Of a stretch of DNA of 16,767 nt, positions 3,099 through 15,772 are shown piece by piece. Under the pieces are notes generated by a model. The model ran no database searches and was not told the origin of the DNA. It worked only from the letters and a program-made list of their open reading frames with translations. How positions within the stretch are numbered: the stretch's first letter is position 1; the number at the start of each line of letters is the position of its first letter. The position numbers were made by a program, and so were the translations under genes. The DNA is from a virus (taxonomy: Duplodnaviria > Heunggongvirae > Uroviricota > Caudoviricetes). The stretch lies in IMG/VR virus record IMGVR_UViG_2713897055_000004. One strand, 5' to 3'.

Positions 3099-3505
3099 GC
3101 AGAAAAATCATCATCAGTCAGCGTGTTATTTTTCGCCACTTCAGTAATATCAGTATCCGGACGAACAGCTTCGATCATCCCGGACAGGCACAACACCACG
3201 TCTTCCGCCCGGGCAATGGCATCGGCAGGCCAGGTGGTGAGCACTTCCTGCTCTATCTTCATCACGGCCTCATTCATTGACGGTGACTGCGTTTTCTGTG
3301 GATGGTTATGCCACAGGGACATCGCCACCAGAAACGCCCCGGTTCTGACAAGGTCTTCCACGCTCACCTGCAGGTTGCCGCTGGCTTCTGCCTCTTCTGC
3401 CCGCCGTTTCAGGAGGGCAAGATGCTCAATACGCTGCAGCGCAGACAGCTCAGAAAGCGTGACAGACACACCGTTATATTCAAATTGTTCTGTTTTCAGA
3501 AACAT
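3074..3505 (-). CDS. G: Tail assembly chaperone G
   Basis: 143 aa. MFLKTEQFEYNGVSVTLSELSALQRIEHLALLKRR... matches remembered lambda gpG. Lies immediately downstream of V. Confidence 0.9.
   Translation of the reverse strand: MFLKTEQFEYNGVSVTLSELSALQRIEHLALLKRRAEEAEASGNLQVSVEDLVRTGAFLVAMSLWHNHPQKTQSPSMNEAVMKIEQEVLTTWPADAIARAEDVVLCLSGMIEAVRPDTDITEVAKNNTLTDDDFSAGKSSTAS
3092..3098 (-). promoter_or_regulatory. Slippery heptamer G_GGA_AAG for the G-T -1 ribosomal frameshift
   Basis: Minus-strand sequence GCG GGA AAG TCT in the G zero frame (codon phase verified from the G start at 3505), 6 codons before the G stop. Same heptamer and position as the lambda G-T frameshift site. Confidence 0.8.
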
Positions 3506-3520
3506 GCTTTATCTCCCCTC

Positions 3521-4270
3521 TCAGCCTGCAGCGCCATCCGTGACGGTGATCTCCGCCACCGCCGCAAACTCACCATTGCCGGTGACAACAGGGATCTGCG
3601 CTTTACCGGCCGCAACACCTTTCACCGTGATCGTGTTCCCTTTCACGGTAATGGTCGCAAAATTCTGATTCGCCGACGTGGCGCGGAAGGTTTTATCCGT
3701 CGCCCCTTCCGGCTGAACAGCCACGGTCAGGGTGATATTCTGACCTTTTGCCACATTGCCCGTTGGTGGCGTCACGGTAATACCGGTGACCGGTGTGATG
3801 TCCCCCTGATCTTCCGCCAGCGACGGACGACCGATATTGGTGATTTTTACCGTACGGGTGATCACCTCTTTGGCGGTCACCGCTTTACCAATGGCGCTCA
3901 CCCAGCCACGAAACACATCCACCGTGCCATTCGGGAAACGGATTTTGTAGGCCCGGCTCTCACTGCTGTCAAACCAGGCAATCAAATCGCGCTGCCCTTT
4001 CTCGCCCGGCTTCCAGGCCAGCGTAAAACTGGTGTCACCGGCAGATTTCTGCCCCTGCCCGGTGGATACCCAGTCAGCATCCTCATCATCCAGATAGTTA
4101 TCATCGTAGGATTCTGCCGTCATCTCGCCGGGGGTCAGATCTTTTATTTTTGCCAGGCGCGTCCACTCATCGTCTGACAACGGGTTTGCATAAGCATCAC
4201 CCTTGCCGGTGTAAACCCACAGTGTGGTACCGGCACCTTTTACCGGCTCCAGGGGATTTGGTGTTGCCAT
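3521..4270 (-). CDS. V: Major tail tube protein V
   Basis: 249 aa. Collinear with remembered lambda gpV (for example [29 protein letters not shown], and the C-terminal region ending [13 protein letters not shown]). Confidence 0.95.
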
Positions 4271-10798: not shown

Positions 10799-12710
10799 TC
10801 ACTCCTCCGGACAGCTTCGCTGCCAGTTCTTTAAGGGTTGGCCGGGTCGTCTCTTCTTCCCGGGATTTTGCCAGTACAGCCAGATCAAGCTGCCAGCGTT
10901 GCACGGACACACGTAATGCCGCATAGGCATACACCAGGCAGTCCAGCGCTTCGTTACGCCGCTTTTTGTTATCCCACAGCAGACGCATCTTTCCTTTTTC
11001 CCACTTCTCCACAAGCTCTTCCGCGACCAGTTGCTGCGCCTCTGTCTGCGAAAAAATCTCCGGATCATCAGGAAAACGGATGGCATACGACGTGGCTTCA
11101 TCCGCAGGCGTGGGATCGGCTTTCATACGGGCATAGAGAATTTCTTTTGCGGTGTCCGTCCCCACTTCACACAGATACACGCCCCGCTGATTGCGGGTTT
11201 TCGGCATGGTGATCACCGGCTTGCCATAGACAGATGCGCCTTTTACCGGCAGCACCCGGAAAACACCGTGTTTTTTTGACCTCTGATAGACAATTTCACC
11301 ATCGATCCCCCCGGTGTCCCAGCAGACACGGGAAATGGTCATTTCGGTTCCGTCTGCATGGCAGTATTTTTTGTTGATCGCCGCATCCACACGTAACAGC
11401 GTCTCTTCCTCATCGGGACGGCCCATAATGATGATTTTATCCACCAGAAAAGCTTCCTCTCCCGGTGCCCATCCCCAGACATACATCTCAAAACGGTTTC
11501 GCTGCGAGTCAATGCCCGCCGTCAGATAAACCACCCGGGCAGGCACCGCCGCCGTGTAATGCACGACCTTATCCATCAGTACCTGGTGATCGAGTTTTTC
11601 GCCCACGGCCTCTTCCCAGGTCTCGCCCAGCGTGGTGTTCACAAAGGTTTTCAGGCCGTTGGGATCTTTCAGTGCATCCAGCCAGTCATAGACTATCTGT
11701 ACCCAGGTGGTGAACGGACTGTACGCCGTCCAGATATGGAACGTGATGGAGCGCGGCGGCGGAATTTCATTATCCGCGGCGCTGAAAAACGTCAGACCGT
11801 CACGGGTCCACATCCCCGTGTTTTCACAGATCCACCGCCCGTTGCTCTGGTCAAGCTCAGACTGATGGATCACGCAGCCATGATGTTCACAGAGGTAGAA
11901 AACGCTTTCGGGGCTGTCCTTCTCCCATTTAAGGCCAAAAGGCGTGGATTCATCGCCAAATTTCAGATACTGCTCCTCCCCACAGTGTGGGCAGGGCACA
12001 TAAAAACGCATGAAATGCGCCGACTCGTTGGCCGCTTTTTCGATCTGGCAGGTGCCTTTGATTTTAGGCGTCGAGCCGCGAATGGATTTGGGCCATACAG
12101 AGCCCTCAATACGTTTATCCCCAAGCAGGGTTGGCGAACCCTCTTTTTCGACATCCGGTTCGAACGAGGAAAGTTCGTCATAGCAGACCACGTCCACGGA
12201 TTTTTCACGGTAGTTTTTAGCGGCAGCCCCGCCCAGGCACCAGAAGCCCACGCCCGATGAAAAACGTTTCAGCGTGAGGGTATTATCACGATGTTTACGC
12301 CCAAACCACGGTGCAAGATCGAGTAAAACCGGCACATCCCTGATCGTGGGTTCCACATGAGATTTCATAAAATCTTCAGCAGCAGAATCCGTGGGCTGGA
12401 AAAGAAGGCTGTTGCGTGATTTATGCTCAATAAAATAAGCCTCCACTCCCAGCAACATCTTTGTATAACCAACACGGGCAGATTTAATCAGATTAACAGT
12501 GCGGATCCGGTCATTCCCCATGCTGTTCATGATGGCAACCTGAAACGGCAGTGTTTCCCACCGCCCCGGGGTGTAAGATGACTCTTTCGGAAGGTAATAA
12601 TGTCGATCTGCCCACTGAACTGTCGTCAGAGGGACAGGAATTTTTAGCGCAAGGAGGCCGGTTGCTATCGCTCCTGCAGAATTAGCCGCCCTCAGTTCGT
12701 CTGAAATCAT
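10782..12710 (-). CDS. A: Terminase large subunit A (start taken at the ATG at 12710)
   Basis: Near end-to-end collinearity with remembered lambda gpA ([43 protein letters not shown]). ATG at 12710 is preceded by AGGTGG and overlaps the Nu1 3' end as in lambda. The ORF-track start at 12752 is an upstream alternative codon. Confidence 0.95.
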
Positions 12711-13230
12711 CAATCCACCTGCGCACATTCTCACCGGCTTCAGAAGCCACATCGGATGCTTTCGCGATTTCAGTTTTCACAGCATCAAGATGTACGGGTG
12801 ATATATCAGGGTATTTACGCTGCAGTGTCTGAGGGACACGGACAAGGATCCCTGATATATTCTGTGCCACTCGCTGAAAGATGTAGGTAAATAACTCCGT
12901 CTCGAGGACAAGGCCTTCCTCACGAGCATTTTTCAGCTCCTGTGCATCGGCCTGTGCCTTCGTCAGTCGGTAACGTTCGTAATCAATGGTGCCGGGCTGA
13001 AGGTCTGATTCGCTGGCAGCCCTCAAATCCTCGACCTCTTTACGGAGTTTTTCATTTTCAATATCAGCTTCGCGCTGAGCATACCATTCGATCGCCTTCG
13101 CAGAATCAAAGATGACCTCAACACCTTTTCCTCCACCAGATATCTGAGGGAGCCCCTGAGTTTGCCAGCGATCAATAGTACGTATATCGACATTAAAGAT
13201 TTCAGCAAGCTTCTTTTTATTAACATTCAT
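12682..13230 (-). CDS. Nu1: Terminase small subunit Nu1
   Basis: 182 aa versus lambda Nu1 at 181 aa. M.VNKK.LA.IF...IRTI..WQ.QG(L/M)P...GGGKG.EV..DSA..I.WYA.R.A.IENEKLR.EVE.L matches. Located right next to cos. Confidence 0.95.
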
Positions 13231-13460
13231 TCAGCAATTCCTTATCAAAAATCAGTTACGACATGAAATGCCAAAAAAGACAGATTTTTCAGCGTTCTGA
13301 TGTCGTTTCTTTCTTGATAATTATTTCTTTAAAAACAATAAGTTAACAACAAGAAGAACTGACATGCTTTTTCCCGAAAAATTTTCATAAATAGCGAAAA
13401 CCCGCGAGGTCGCCGCCCCGTAACGGCCCGGATCGCCGGAAAGGACCCGTAAAATGATAA
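13231..13460 (-). other. cos: cos region (cosB with three R-site-like elements, cosN, cosQ-like flank)
   Basis: Minus-strand sequence GGGCGGCGACCTCGCGGGTTTTCGCTATTTATGAAAAT is identical to the remembered left end of lambda. R-like cores TGTCGT/TGTCAG lie at 13255-13265, 13301-13309 and 13357-13366, with the middle one inverted as in lambda cosB. Upstream flank TTTTACGGGTCCTTTCCGGCGATCCG resembles the lambda right end (cosQ side). Confidence 0.85.
13407..13418 (-). other. cosN: cosN 12-nt cohesive-end sequence (GGGCGGCGACCT on minus strand)
   Basis: Exact 12-mer of the lambda cohesive end, in the expected orientation and distance (about 190 bp) relative to Nu1. Confidence 0.85.
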
Positions 13461-13919
13461 TGGTTATCAGTTGCAACAAAATCCAGTTTCTTCCACCATC
13501 GCACCGGACCAGCGACCATGAGGGGACAACGCCGCGCTCCGTTAACGCGGTAAACCCCGGTGTGTATCGTTTTTGATTATCCCCGCACACTCTCGCAGAG
13601 GAGTCTCCCTGTCGGGCTGCGGTCTCTGTTAATGCAGGAATACGGCGACGATACGGCGCATGGCTATGTCAGGCTGAAATGCCTTTATCCGTTAAAAAGG
13701 ATATCAATTAAGTTATCCCGTGTAGGGTATAAGCCATTGTCGAGACCACTCATTGAATGGTCTCTGCAATAACCGATGTCTTTCCATCAGTCCGCCACCA
13801 CAAAGAATCTTTTTTGCCATAAGGCAGGAGGTTCATCTTTCAGTGGCTGCCAGTGTTATTTCCCCACTTTCTGGCTTGGGTTGTTTCGCTGTACTGCCGT
13901 TAATTGGTGAGTCCGGGGA

Positions 13920-14405
13920 TTATTTCAGTTCGTTACCAGGCATTTCTTTTAGCTCTTTCAAATGACAACGATTGAGGCTAAACCACTCCCCGTGCGACCT
14001 ATAGTTGTAATATTTTTGGTGCAATTTGGTTTCAAGCTCTCTATCGGCCGGAATCTTTGCAATTAGATTTAGCTTCCCACCACTCATGCGAGATATCTCT
14101 GAAATTCGTTTATTAACCCTGCGACTAAACCCTATTTTTGTTAGCCCACTATCTTCAGCATGCAGAACGTACACATATGATTTTTGCGAAGCACTGGGTG
14201 CAACTTTGTTGTAATTAATCATGTCAAACATGAAGCCTTGCTTTAGCAAAGTTTCAAAAAAGATAGAATTAACACACCCATTCCTTCTCAGCTCTGCACT
14301 TAGCTTGTCAATTTCCTCTATGATGTCGCCAGACCCCTTTCCACTTATAAGAAAATCTTGGTACATGCGACCAATTCTTGAGGTAATTTCAACAAAGTTA
14401 TTCAT
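13920..14405 (-). CDS. T5orf172 / GIY-YIG-like domain protein (moron; function unknown)
   Basis: 161-aa ORF with ATG at 14405 and AAGG upstream. The C-terminal half has the pattern YVYVL...GLTKIGFS(R)..N.R...I.......L.......ELE..LHQ.Y...R..GEWF, which I recognise as T5orf172/MUG113 (GIY-YIG-like). The ORF is clearly AT-rich by eye compared with the flanking phage genes. Confidence 0.6.
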   Translation of the reverse strand: MNNFVEITSRIGRMYQDFLISGKGSGDIIEEIDKLSAELRRNGCVNSIFFETLLKQGFMFDMINYNKVAPSASQKSYVYVLHAEDSGLTKIGFSRRVNKRISEISRMSGGKLNLIAKIPADRELETKLHQKYYNYRSHGEWFSLNRCHLKELKEMPGNELK

Positions 14406-14551
14406 AGCGTTTACCTTTTAGAAAGATGAGCCTGTTCGCACAGAAAAGCCGTCCCCGAGATGGTCGCCACCATATACGGCAATTCTCAGGCTCAGCTTTC
14501 TGAAAGACTCGGGATTGTTACGCGCTGCGATGCGCGGTTTACTGCAGATGT

Positions 14552-14577
14552 AAAAAAAAAGCCCCGCATCGCGAGGC
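14552..14577 (-). terminator. Rho-independent terminator downstream of Rz/Rz1
   Basis: Minus-strand RNA GCCUCGC-GAU-GCGGGGC (7-bp stem with one G-U pair) followed immediately by U9. Sits 34 nt after the Rz stop. A separate U8 run directly follows the Rz stop (14603-14610). Confidence 0.65.
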
Positions 14578-14610
14578 TCATTAAATGGACTTTGTGATTT
14601 GCAAAAAAAA

Positions 14611-15054
14611 TTATTTCAGGCATTGCGTCCTGATGTACTCCTGCAGGTAGTTAACCTGCGCGGTTATCCTGTCGATTCCACTTCGGAGACGGTAATAATT
14701 GAGTTCAGCATCTGCTGTAAGTCCTGGGCTTTCTCCATCGCCCATGCTGCTGGCTCCGGTCGTTGACTTTGCACAGGTGGCGGCGACTTGCAGGCGCTTA
14801 CGACCAGCAGAAACATCAGCACGGAGACTTTCGATAGTCGCATTAGCATCAGCAAGCTCCTTTGTGTATCTGGCGTCAAGTTCTGCTACATCACGTTGCC
14901 GCTTCTGCATATCATCGATGATGGATGTGGCTTTATCGCGCTGCTCTTTGTAGGCGATGGCGTTATCACGGTAATGATTCAGCCCCAGACTAAGCACACC
15001 ACAGACCACCAGCAGAATAACGGTAAACGCGGAAATAATTCGGTTTATGCTCAC
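14611..15054 (-). CDS. Rz: Inner-membrane spanin subunit Rz (GTG start at 15054)
   Basis: From the GTG: [41 protein letters not shown]...[22 protein letters not shown], collinear with remembered lambda Rz ([39 protein letters not shown]). The ORF-track start at 15147 is an upstream TTG with an implausible N-terminus. Confidence 0.85.
14664..14849 (-). CDS. Rz1: Outer-membrane lipoprotein spanin subunit Rz1, embedded in the +1 frame of Rz
   Basis: ATG at 14849 preceded by AAGGAG with a 7-nt spacer. 61-aa product [36 protein letters not shown]... has a lipobox-like VSAC and a Pro-rich mature part like lambda Rz1 (60 aa). Entirely nested within Rz. Confidence 0.7.
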
Positions 15055-15200
15055 CCCACCAGCCCTGCCGAACTCAACGCCATCCAGGCTATGGAAAGAA
15101 AAAGAGCAACCATCATTAGCGAAAATGAAACGCCGACAATCACACAAATGGTCTTTGTCAGCGTTATGATTTTATCCGATATCATTAGCCACCTCTCCAT
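15051..15200 (-). CDS. Small hydrophobic ORF (49 aa; 44 aa from an internal ATG at 15185), possibly a duplicated Rz N-terminal signal-anchor remnant
   Basis: Not in the ORF track because it is under 60 aa. Its ATG overlaps the Ant-like stop (TGATG) and its TGA overlaps the Rz GTG start (GTGA). Product [49 protein letters not shown] has one predicted transmembrane helix. The segment [22 protein letters not shown] resembles the Rz N-terminus [22 protein letters not shown]. Confidence 0.3.
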
Positions 15201-15772
15201 CAATCCGCCTTTGTTATTTTCCCTTTGCCTGTATCAGCCAGGACAAAATCAATCAGCAGATTCGCTTCGTTTATCAATGTGCGGATTTTTGATACATGCG
15301 CAGCTTTAACCTGTTTCCACTCATTCAGCCCGGTAGCAAACACACTGACAATGTTTTTATCCCGTTGCATGTCAGCGCAAGCCTGATTGAGTTCTTCCAT
15401 CACGCTCATTTGACGAGGATTAACGACAAAACCCTTCGTCCAGTATTCATAGAGAACATCGTCGCACTCTTCCTGATACTGAATGACTCTGTCGCGGATT
15501 TCAGGTTTAACTTTATTTGGGTTGATGGTTTGCAGCCAACCTGCAAGTTTACGTAAAGCAAGACAGATAACCAGACGACGCTGAGTATCACCGGGGAGCT
15601 GAATCATCATTTCGATGATGCAGGTCTTAAATCTCTCTATCAATTTGCGGTGTTGAGACTGCCAGGTCATACCCATTCCCTCAACGACAGGTTTCATGGG
15701 AACGTATGGTTCGCCGTTATGGTTAACCACATAAAGAGAATCGCCGTGAAACGGCACGGTCATCATATTCAT
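15200..15772 (-). CDS. Ant-like protein (P22 antirepressor N-terminal-domain-like), inserted between endolysin and Rz
   Basis: 190-aa ORF with ATG at 15772 preceded by AAGGAA. The N-terminal pattern VPFHGDSLYVV.HNGEPYVPMKPVVEGMGMTWQSQ..KL...F......I......GD.QRR.V.CL.L.KL.GWL.TINP.KVKPEIR is what I recall for the P22_AR_N family. This is a domain-level recollection, not a computed hit. Confidence 0.55.
   Translation of the reverse strand: MNMMTVPFHGDSLYVVNHNGEPYVPMKPVVEGMGMTWQSQHRKLIERFKTCIIEMMIQLPGDTQRRLVICLALRKLAGWLQTINPNKVKPEIRDRVIQYQEECDDVLYEYWTKGFVVNPRQMSVMEELNQACADMQRDKNIVSVFATGLNEWKQVKAAHVSKIRTLINEANLLIDFVLADTGKGKITKAD

Follow-up and report, generated by a model that had tools for sequence, protein, structure and literature searches.

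A Predicted T5orf172-Family (GIY-YIG) Nuclease Gene in an Exchangeable Cargo Slot Between the Lysis and Packaging Genes of a Lambda-Like Prophage

Introduction

In ICP1, T5-like and other phages, members of the T5orf172 gene family behave like homing endonuclease genes; they occur most frequently in the vicinity of terminase genes (35% of neighborhoods) and mark the boundaries of genetic exchange (PMC10448857). Odn is a sequence-directed T5orf172 nuclease that destroys a phage satellite (PMC8263062), and PD-T4-3/CMoRE is a single-protein GIY-YIG anti-phage restriction enzyme of 248 amino acids (aa) with a C-terminal domain that senses modified cytosine (PMC12923530). Here we describe a gene of the T5orf172 family in a temperate lambdoid phage. 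It encodes a protein of 161 aa and lies between the lysis and packaging genes of a 16,767-nucleotide (nt) stretch of Caudoviricetes DNA, IMG/VR record IMGVR_UViG_2713897055_000004 (the window; all coordinates refer to this whole stretch). The gene sits in a cargo slot in which whole open reading frames (ORFs) are exchanged between fixed flanks, and it may encode an active endonuclease that is made late in lytic growth and has a selfish role or one in conflicts between mobile elements.

The T5orf172 homing genes of ICP1 and the T5-like phages, as well as Odn (gp88), share several features with this gene: the Pfam domain, a sporadic distribution, a terminase neighborhood and a location at mosaic boundaries. 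Their products, however, are 190–410 aa long and carry Zn-finger (CapR/DUF723/DUF4397) or RepA_N domains, whereas the present protein has an acidic helical bundle instead, and their hosts are lytic phages. In comparison with I-TevI, SLX1/HIGLE, the N-terminal domain of UvrC, T4 EndoII and R.Eco29kI the YIG motif is replaced by KIG, and the His or Tyr that canonical GIY-YIG nucleases have four residues past the Arg is missing.

The same protein, terminator, leader, 3′ flank and post-Rz position are found in the Salmonella phages epsilon34, g341c and NM-3. Yet these are P22-like podoviruses with DUF2560 and a P22-type terminase downstream, whereas the window belongs to an Stx2a-type (Shiga toxin 2a) prophage with lambda-type cos, Nu1 and A. 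HK106 gp64 and its counterpart in Chlobot share the two-domain architecture, the slot and the flanks (92–97% nucleotide identity in the flanks), but the protein is only 29–32% identical, the ORF is unalignable at the DNA level, and HK106 has an HK97-like packaging module with an HNH gene downstream. In lambda, bor lies between Rz and cos on the opposite strand, has its own promoter and is expressed in lysogens. Like bor and the classical morons, the gene described here is an extra, compositionally distinct gene near the right genome end between Rz and cos, but unlike bor it runs in the direction of the late operon, and neither a promoter nor a terminator belonging to it was detected.

The 161-aa Protein and Its Nuclease Domain

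The gene and the two domains of its product are as follows.

13920–14405, minus strand: the 161-aa ORF, with an ATG start and its stop codon at 13920–13922; it encodes a two-domain protein
14196–14405, minus strand: N-terminal domain (residues 1–70), a three-helix bundle with helices at residues 3–21, 25–41 and 47–68 in the AlphaFold2 model
13923–14195, minus strand: C-terminal GIY-YIG (T5orf172/MUG113) nuclease domain (residues 71–161) with the candidate catalytic residues Y79, K90-I-G92, R100 and E125

Residues 77–154 matched both MUG113 (PF13455; E = 4.2e-13, 50.1 bits against a cut-off of 22.3) and T5orf172 (PF10544; E = 1.1e-9, 39.2 bits against a cut-off of 20). As both scores exceed the curated gathering thresholds, the protein is a member of T5orf172/MUG113 within the GIY-YIG clan. 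The full-length protein matched PHROG 4284 (function not assigned; E = 1.4e-75); a search of NCBIfam gave no match, and sequence and profile searches against PDB chains gave none even at E ≤ 10.

In the AlphaFold2 model (predicted local distance difference test, pLDDT, 86.7) the N-terminal bundle is followed by a β-β-α-β-α-β-α domain, which contains the β-β-α-β-α core fold of GIY-YIG nucleases. Foldseek found nothing in the PDB at E ≤ 0.001 with the full-length model. For the modeled C-terminal half, the only matches among solved structures were GIY-YIG nucleases (SLX1, I-TevI). SLX1 and HIGLE were the top fold matches, with PD-T4-3, Eco29kI, T4 EndoII and UvrC ranking lower.

V78-Y79-V80 lies in the 'GIY' strand and is conserved in all genuine members of the family, while strand 2 carries K90-I-G92, where Lys takes the place of the second Tyr of YIG as it also does in ICP1 Odn (KVG). 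R100 aligns with the Arg of Odn, in the position of the catalytic Arg of helix 1, and is found 8 residues past G92, the spacing seen in I-TevI and UvrC. E125-TKL-H129 has the same form as E180-QRI-H184 of Odn and would provide the catalytic Glu, an equivalence by motif and not by superposition. No allele varies at R100 or E125, and every genuine allele down to 29% identity (HK106) retains Y79 and K90-I-G92; within the alignment, only the Rz-fusion chimera P0014 departs from this, as it lacks the first motifs. An invariant H138-G-E140-W-F fills the region where the Asn of the canonical metal site would lie. The first half of the nuclease domain also aligns with ICP1 Odn by BLASTP (E = 3e-5), and the E180A substitution in Odn abolishes cleavage (PMC8263062). 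Based on the E125 motif shared with Odn, the effect of E180A, the alignment and the conserved residues, we predict that the protein is an active nuclease.

The N-terminal 70 residues are acidic, with an isoelectric point (pI) of 5.2 against 9.7 for the nuclease domain. Residues 1–76 had no match in Pfam or NCBIfam, and a phmmer search of the domain against 1.8 billion representatives returned only its own cluster, a 23-residue fragment that equals the query N-terminus and a repetitive protein of 4141 aa. A profile search with the domain returned only truncated copies of the same gene, and its fold is that of a generic bundle. The bundle is thus family-specific and belongs to no described family. 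It is more likely to serve in oligomerization or partner binding than in DNA recognition. In a preliminary description of this DNA, based on the letters and their ORFs alone, the C-terminal half had been recognized as T5orf172/GIY-YIG-like and the first ≈75 residues as resembling nothing familiar. The profile and fold matches bear out the former, and the Pfam, NCBIfam, phmmer, profile and fold searches all agree on the latter for ≈70 residues.

The same description had placed the gene between Rz/Rz1 and cos and given it a markedly lower guanine-plus-cytosine (GC) content than its neighbors, and this was found to be correct on both counts. Rz/Rz1 lie upstream and cosN downstream. The GC content of the ORF is 0.389 and that of its third codon positions (GC3) 0.395, against 0.540 for the whole window; values for the neighbors are 0.505 (Rz), 0.477 (Nu1), 0.514 (leader, 14406–14578) and 0.449 (3′ flank, 13684–13919). 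The lowest-GC stretch of 486 base pairs (bp) in the window begins at 13942, and just 0.07% of all 486-bp windows are equally low.

An Exchangeable Cargo Slot With Fixed Flanks

The gene is embedded in the following elements.

14550–14579, minus strand: intrinsic terminator after Rz, with a stem at 14579–14559 of 9 pairs (6 G-C), a 3-nt loop and a run of nine T
14406–14549, minus strand: 5′ leader with the Shine-Dalgarno sequence AAGG (14417–14414), common to all cargo types
13684–13919, minus strand: 3′ flank of the slot, 236 bp, common to all cargo types
13713–13820, minus strand: 35-codon ORF remnant in the shared 3′ flank
13662–14605: segment of ≈940 bp comprising terminator, leader, ORF and 3′ flank, absent from the prophage of enterotoxigenic Escherichia coli (ETEC) L5_E1779

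Over window positions 14401/14406–14578 (leader and terminator, 173 nt from 14406 on) and 13684–13919, blastn alignments to phages with unrelated cargo showed 94–99% identity. Taken singly, the leader is 94–96% identical in Sf101, CUS-3, JEP4, SE1 and EC.P3, whose cargo is Rha or KilA-N-like, and the 3′ flank is 95–99% identical in these five and in HK106. Between these flanks Sf101 and CUS-3 carry Rha with ORF11CD3, JEP4 another Rha, SE1 and EC.P3 a KilA-N-like DNA-binding protein, and HK106 the divergent T5orf172 homolog. The swapped unit is approximately the ORF alone, beginning at the start codon and ending within a few bases of the stop. Annotations of E. coli genomes list further cargos near the slot, namely KilA-N, the Gp49/Sf6 gene 66 family, DUF1398, YlcI/YnfO and PerC.

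A cargo-free allele was found by blastn in the lambda-like prophage of ETEC L5_E1779, where the Rz stop region abuts the cos region. Window positions 12610–13661 and 14606–14644 are adjacent there, with a gap of 441 bp between Nu1 and Rz. The junction identifies the ≈940-bp segment as an insertion relative to that allele. The module that the window shares with epsilon34 joins the lambda-type cos/Nu1/A packaging module at about 13667–13683.

Because they are near-identical in phages that carry quite different genes, the terminator, leader, ribosome-binding site (RBS) and 3′ flank are, judged by these alignments, properties of the slot and not of the gene. An RBS of its own and a preceding terminator had been taken to make the gene an independently acquired cassette. 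Both signals exist, but they are common to all cargos; the acquisition of the gene as such is nevertheless upheld by other evidence. The expectation that the cargo at the Rz–cos locus varies among relatives is borne out by the Rha, KilA-N-like, divergent T5orf172 and empty alleles. This anatomy, with a fixed terminator, leader and RBS, a fixed 3′ flank and swaps of whole ORFs, explains the mosaicism at the boundary between lysis and packaging genes.

Better conservation of the ORF than of its flanks was considered as a signature of homing and rejected. The ORF is 99.8% identical to that of epsilon34 (flanks 98%) and 98.6% identical to that of strain D7 (flanks 90–94%). Control comparisons of the Rha cargo in Sf101 and CUS-3 (ORF 100%, flanks 98–99.5%) and of the KilA-N-like cargo in SE1 and EC.P3 (ORF 98.5%, flanks 97.7–98.8%) show the same pattern in genes that do not encode nucleases, and it therefore reflects the slot and not the nuclease.

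The 35-codon ORF in the 3′ flank has no Pfam match. For part of the corresponding stretch, the epsilon34 record notes similarity to the N-terminal end of ST64T orf118, and the ORF has the look of a gene remnant whose present use is to provide homology for recombination. E. coli D7 has tandem cargos, the T5orf172 gene followed by a Phage_gp49_66 gene (N4 Gp49/Sf6 gene 66; D7 locus 3441–3821), and its leader and distal 3′ flank are far more divergent (83–90%) than the ORF.

Distribution, Alleles and Selection

A protein 100% identical to the one in the window is encoded by Salmonella phages epsilon34 (gp68), g341c (gp64) and NM-3 (an ORF), and the ORF differs from that of epsilon34 by 1 nt in 486. 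Among 50,697 phage records, these 3 distinct phages (5 records) were the only ones with the identical two-domain protein, and HK106 and Chlobot had the version that is ≈32% identical. The complete E. coli genomes contained the gene in 58 of 5426 cases, always as a single chromosomal copy. Nucleotide identity was at least 99% for 56 of the 58 copies and at least 98.6% for the full-length ones. A single motif pattern, run against the GTDB species genomes, hit one mis-binned contig that has the identical gene; all other hits were distant T5orf172 proteins.

In every context inspected the gene comes directly after the Rz/lysis gene, or after a trailing 50-aa ORF, and before the packaging module. 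That module is of lambda type in the window, of P22 type in E. coli W and of PBSX type in WCHEC4533 and D7, while alleles of 60% identity adjoin packaging modules of the Terminase_2 or Terminase_3 type. The whole Nu1–cos–gene–Rz arrangement of the window occurs in only 3 genomes, the closest of which is an Stx2a prophage.

The nearest relatives of the window are Stx2a-converting prophages (E. coli MDP9-27; also STEC1588 and MFDS1006657), which carry stx2AB on the same late transcript, ≈7 kb upstream. The gene is nonetheless absent from all records of Stx-converting phages in the phage collection, which match the flanks only.

Four close alleles differ from one another by only a few nucleotides, always synonymously, and the ratio of nonsynonymous to synonymous substitution rates (dN/dS) is 0.14–0.19 against the alleles of 60 and 30% identity. 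This purifying selection argues against a dead hitch-hiker. The two-domain architecture and the motif residues are also conserved at 29% identity.

Truncated and fused derivatives are on record as P0014, P0005, P0004 and P0017–P0025. P0014 has an N-terminal part with a Phage_lysis (Rz-type) Pfam match joined to the last ≈40 residues of the 161-aa protein, P0005 is a fusion with PF10834, and several are stand-alone fragments of the N-terminal domain (46–111 aa). Some of them may be artifacts of assembly or gene calling; others suggest deletions within the slot.

Taken by its distribution, the gene is a horizontally acquired accessory and not part of the phage backbone. Its restriction to 58 of 5426 E. 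coli genomes and 3 distinct phages and the cargo-free allele agree with the earlier view that it was acquired. It had also been put forward as the best candidate in the window for an undescribed accessory function. As a sequence it is not undescribed: the identical protein has been public since 2008 as epsilon34 gp68 and is RefSeq entry WP_001058931.1, named 'GIY-YIG nuclease family protein'. The epsilon34 genome paper (2008) does not discuss gene 68.

Expression Signals

The gene points the same way as the lysis and packaging genes. The strong terminator that had been noticed after Rz is present, and its counterpart is annotated as rho-independent in both epsilon34 and HK106. The AAGG of the RBS lies 8 nt upstream of the ATG. 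A simple consensus scan of the minus strand from 14558 to 14406 found no sigma-70-like promoter, although a weak or non-sigma-70 promoter could escape such a scan, and no minus-strand terminator was found between the stop codon and cos. In the lambda model, RNA polymerase modified by Q reads through the intrinsic terminators of the late operon. With no promoter, no downstream terminator and co-orientation with the late genes, late lytic expression is the simplest reading. The gene is probably read late in lytic growth as part of the late operon and silent in the lysogen.

The preliminary description had called the gene a moron, at the position where lambdoid phages carry such genes as bor, and left open a role in lysogenic conversion. 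Absence from related phages and a deviant base composition fit the term moron as defined by Hendrix and Juhala, but a promoter and terminator of its own, as far as a consensus scan can detect them, do not belong to the gene. Bor-like expression from the prophage is unsupported, with no promoter in the leader and no terminator after the stop.

The leader RNA folds better than shuffled controls (z = −2.3), from which no conclusion was drawn. A long imperfect hairpin is predicted at 14416–14507 (minus strand), directly ahead of the Shine-Dalgarno sequence; its outer stem extends to the bases that precede that sequence. Since the leader is conserved whatever gene comes after it, a role as a translational control element is conceivable. 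An upstream ORF in the leader (MVATISG...) was taken as spurious, as its frame is not maintained between phages.

Neighboring Genes and cos

The genes and sites around the slot are listed below.

16047–16580, minus strand: endolysin gene from the ORF list, upstream of the 161-aa ORF on the coding strand
15200–15772, minus strand: P22_AR_N gene (190 aa; E = 4.7e-45), flanked in the lysis cassette by the endolysin gene and Rz
14611–15147, minus strand: Rz spanin gene from the ORF list, annotated as 'lysis protein' in a near-identical prophage; its start codon is uncertain
14664–14879, minus strand: Rz1, embedded in Rz, with the lipobox VSAC
13407–13418, minus strand: cosN, GGGCGGCGACCT, read directly in the sequence and downstream of the 161-aa ORF on the transcript
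12682–13230, minus strand: Nu1, past cos and followed by A, the large terminase gene

The cosN 12-mer lies in a cos sequence identical to that of lambda. With its flanks (13380–13430) it reads ACGGGGCGGCGACCTCGCGGGTTTTCGCTATTTATGAAAATTTT, exactly as in lambda. Beyond it, Nu1 and the cosB region are just ≈78% identical to another lambda-like prophage. Shortly before cos on the late strand comes a GC-rich non-coding segment of 180 bp (13486–13666). A prophage with HK97-like packaging (HNH and terS) has it at 96% identity, directly after the post-Rz region, and the segment may represent a conserved element close to cos, for example cosQ. No matches came from scans of the window for Rfam families and tRNAs.

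The P22_AR_N domain is the N-terminal domain of antirepressors, and the 190-aa protein also has a weak ORF11CD3 match (E = 5e-4, below the cut-off), a domain that is found at the end of the Rha cargo in Sf101 as well. Together with the T5orf172 gene, this places two members of the Bro/Rha/KilA/T5orf172 network ≈800 bp apart in the late region. In ICP1 the Odn gene (ORF88) adjoins a Bro-N/Ant gene (ORF89), which echoes the pairing of a nuclease with an antirepressor-like gene seen here.

Possible Functions of the Gene

The ORF, its composition, its domain and fold, the slot anatomy, the sporadic distribution and the purifying selection are established by the results above. We infer, with a probability of roughly 0.45, that the gene encodes an active GIY-YIG endonuclease that is made late and has a selfish or mobile-element-conflict role. 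The product would be a small, probably active, Mg-dependent T5orf172/MUG113 endonuclease fused to the family-specific three-helix bundle. Its gene would occupy a conserved cargo slot that closes the lysis cassette of the late operon, just before cos and the packaging genes. The slot would provide the upstream terminator, the leader with its RBS and the 3′ flank, and the ORF alone would be exchanged, by recombination in the flanks. Having no promoter of its own, the gene would be transcribed only on read-through by Q-modified polymerase, hence in the late lytic phase but not in a lysogen. The nuclease would then act on DNA, either by a homing-like spread into genomes that lack the gene or by cutting the DNA of competing phages or satellites. 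The domain, the position, the sporadic distribution, the empty allele and the truncated and fused derivatives all fit the picture drawn for T5orf172 genes. The gene has the sporadic presence (58 of 5426 E. coli genomes) and the empty allele (ETEC L5_E1779) that are looked for in a homing gene, and its mobility is apparent from the identical protein in E. coli prophages with lambda-, P22- and PBSX-type packaging and in Salmonella phages.

Several observations weigh against a late-made homing or conflict nuclease. Zn-finger domains are found in 87% of the surveyed T5orf172 homing genes (PMC10448857), and there is none here. A separate sequence-specific DNA-binding domain, as a homing endonuclease would have, is not recognizable in the protein, its extra domain being an acidic, generic bundle. 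The family alignment contains no invariant Asn in the right region for the canonical GIY-YIG Asn (N90 of I-TevI). The slot swaps non-nuclease cargo just as cleanly, and alleles of 60 and 30% identity still reside in the same slot, which fits long-term residence equally well as homing. Finally, a promoter of the kind that could escape the consensus scan would speak against expression confined to the late phase.

The gene could alternatively be a true moron like bor or rexAB, whose product is expressed from the prophage and cuts incoming phage DNA as a defense or superinfection-exclusion nuclease. We consider this unlikely: the leader has no promoter-like site, the gene is oriented with the late operon behind a strong terminator, and the protein contains no modification-sensing or other target-discriminating domain. 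There is also no partner immunity gene, as the neighboring small ORFs are the same whatever the cargo. Neither the PADLOC model nor the sequence of PD-T4-3 matched the protein, and PADLOC gave no match to a validated system, only to the candidate models PDC-S57 (E = 4e-4, domain-level) and PDC-M64B (E = 0.034). The Rha with ORF11CD3 and the KilA-N-like DNA-binding proteins in the same slot would fit a DNA-binding regulator or antirepressor-like factor, equivalent to those cargos, in which the nuclease fold is used for binding. T5orf172 and these domains reportedly share one network of viral DNA-binding domains that are shuffled among proteins, as described by Iyer, Koonin and Aravind in 2002. 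The ICP1 satellite protein CapR, which acts as a repressor, comes from a domesticated T5orf172-family gene (PMC10448857). CapR, however, binds DNA via a Zn finger, which the 161-aa protein lacks, and retention of catalytic-type residues in all genuine alleles under purifying selection is not expected had catalysis been lost. To this regulator we assign only a small probability.

SLX1 and HIGLE, nucleases of Holliday junctions and flaps, head the list of fold matches, which suggests yet another role, in which a structure-specific nuclease would trim branched replication or recombination intermediates before packaging, like T4 endonuclease VII or T7 endonuclease I. The place of the gene immediately ahead of the packaging module and its probable late expression would suit this role, and the absence of a specificity domain would fit recognition by structure rather than by sequence. 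All the same, such a trimming function seems to us quite improbable. Least probable is a functionless hitch-hiker or decaying remnant moved by recombination in the slot flanks. The gene is rare, truncated and fused copies exist, and the slot moves any cargo, but the ORF is intact in 58 genomes with high nucleotide identity, its close alleles differ only synonymously, dN/dS is low between distant ones, and architecture and motif residues are retained at 29% identity.

A more specific form of the late conflict nuclease is a long shot. Here the stretch between Rz and the packaging genes of enterobacterial lambdoid and P22-like phages would be a dedicated late slot for conflict genes, in which the common terminator, leader and RBS drive interchangeable Rha, KilA-N-like and T5orf172 cargos. 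The T5orf172 cargo, recruited through its bundle by a protein partner and not by DNA sequence, would cut a competitor that hijacks packaging, such as a satellite of the phage-inducible chromosomal island (PICI) type or a co-induced prophage.

Implications

The sequence has been public and routinely annotated since the epsilon34 genome, and the gene is an uncharacterized member of a known nuclease family, so that a specialist would find little surprise in it. The novelty is modest and lies in how the slot is built, in the family-specific N-terminal domain and in the presence of the gene in a lambda-like prophage of the Stx2a type. The slot anatomy is the practically useful result, and the slot is a natural site for probing the function of its cargos. 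If the cargo of such a dedicated slot did cut competitors that hijack packaging, temperate coliphages, Stx2a phages among them, would possess an anti-satellite nuclease comparable to Odn. More generally, if the protein is active against competing phages or satellites, the idea of T5orf172 conflict nucleases would extend from lytic vibriophages to temperate enterobacterial phages, Shiga-toxin prophages among them, and a widely copied 'hypothetical' gene would have a function.

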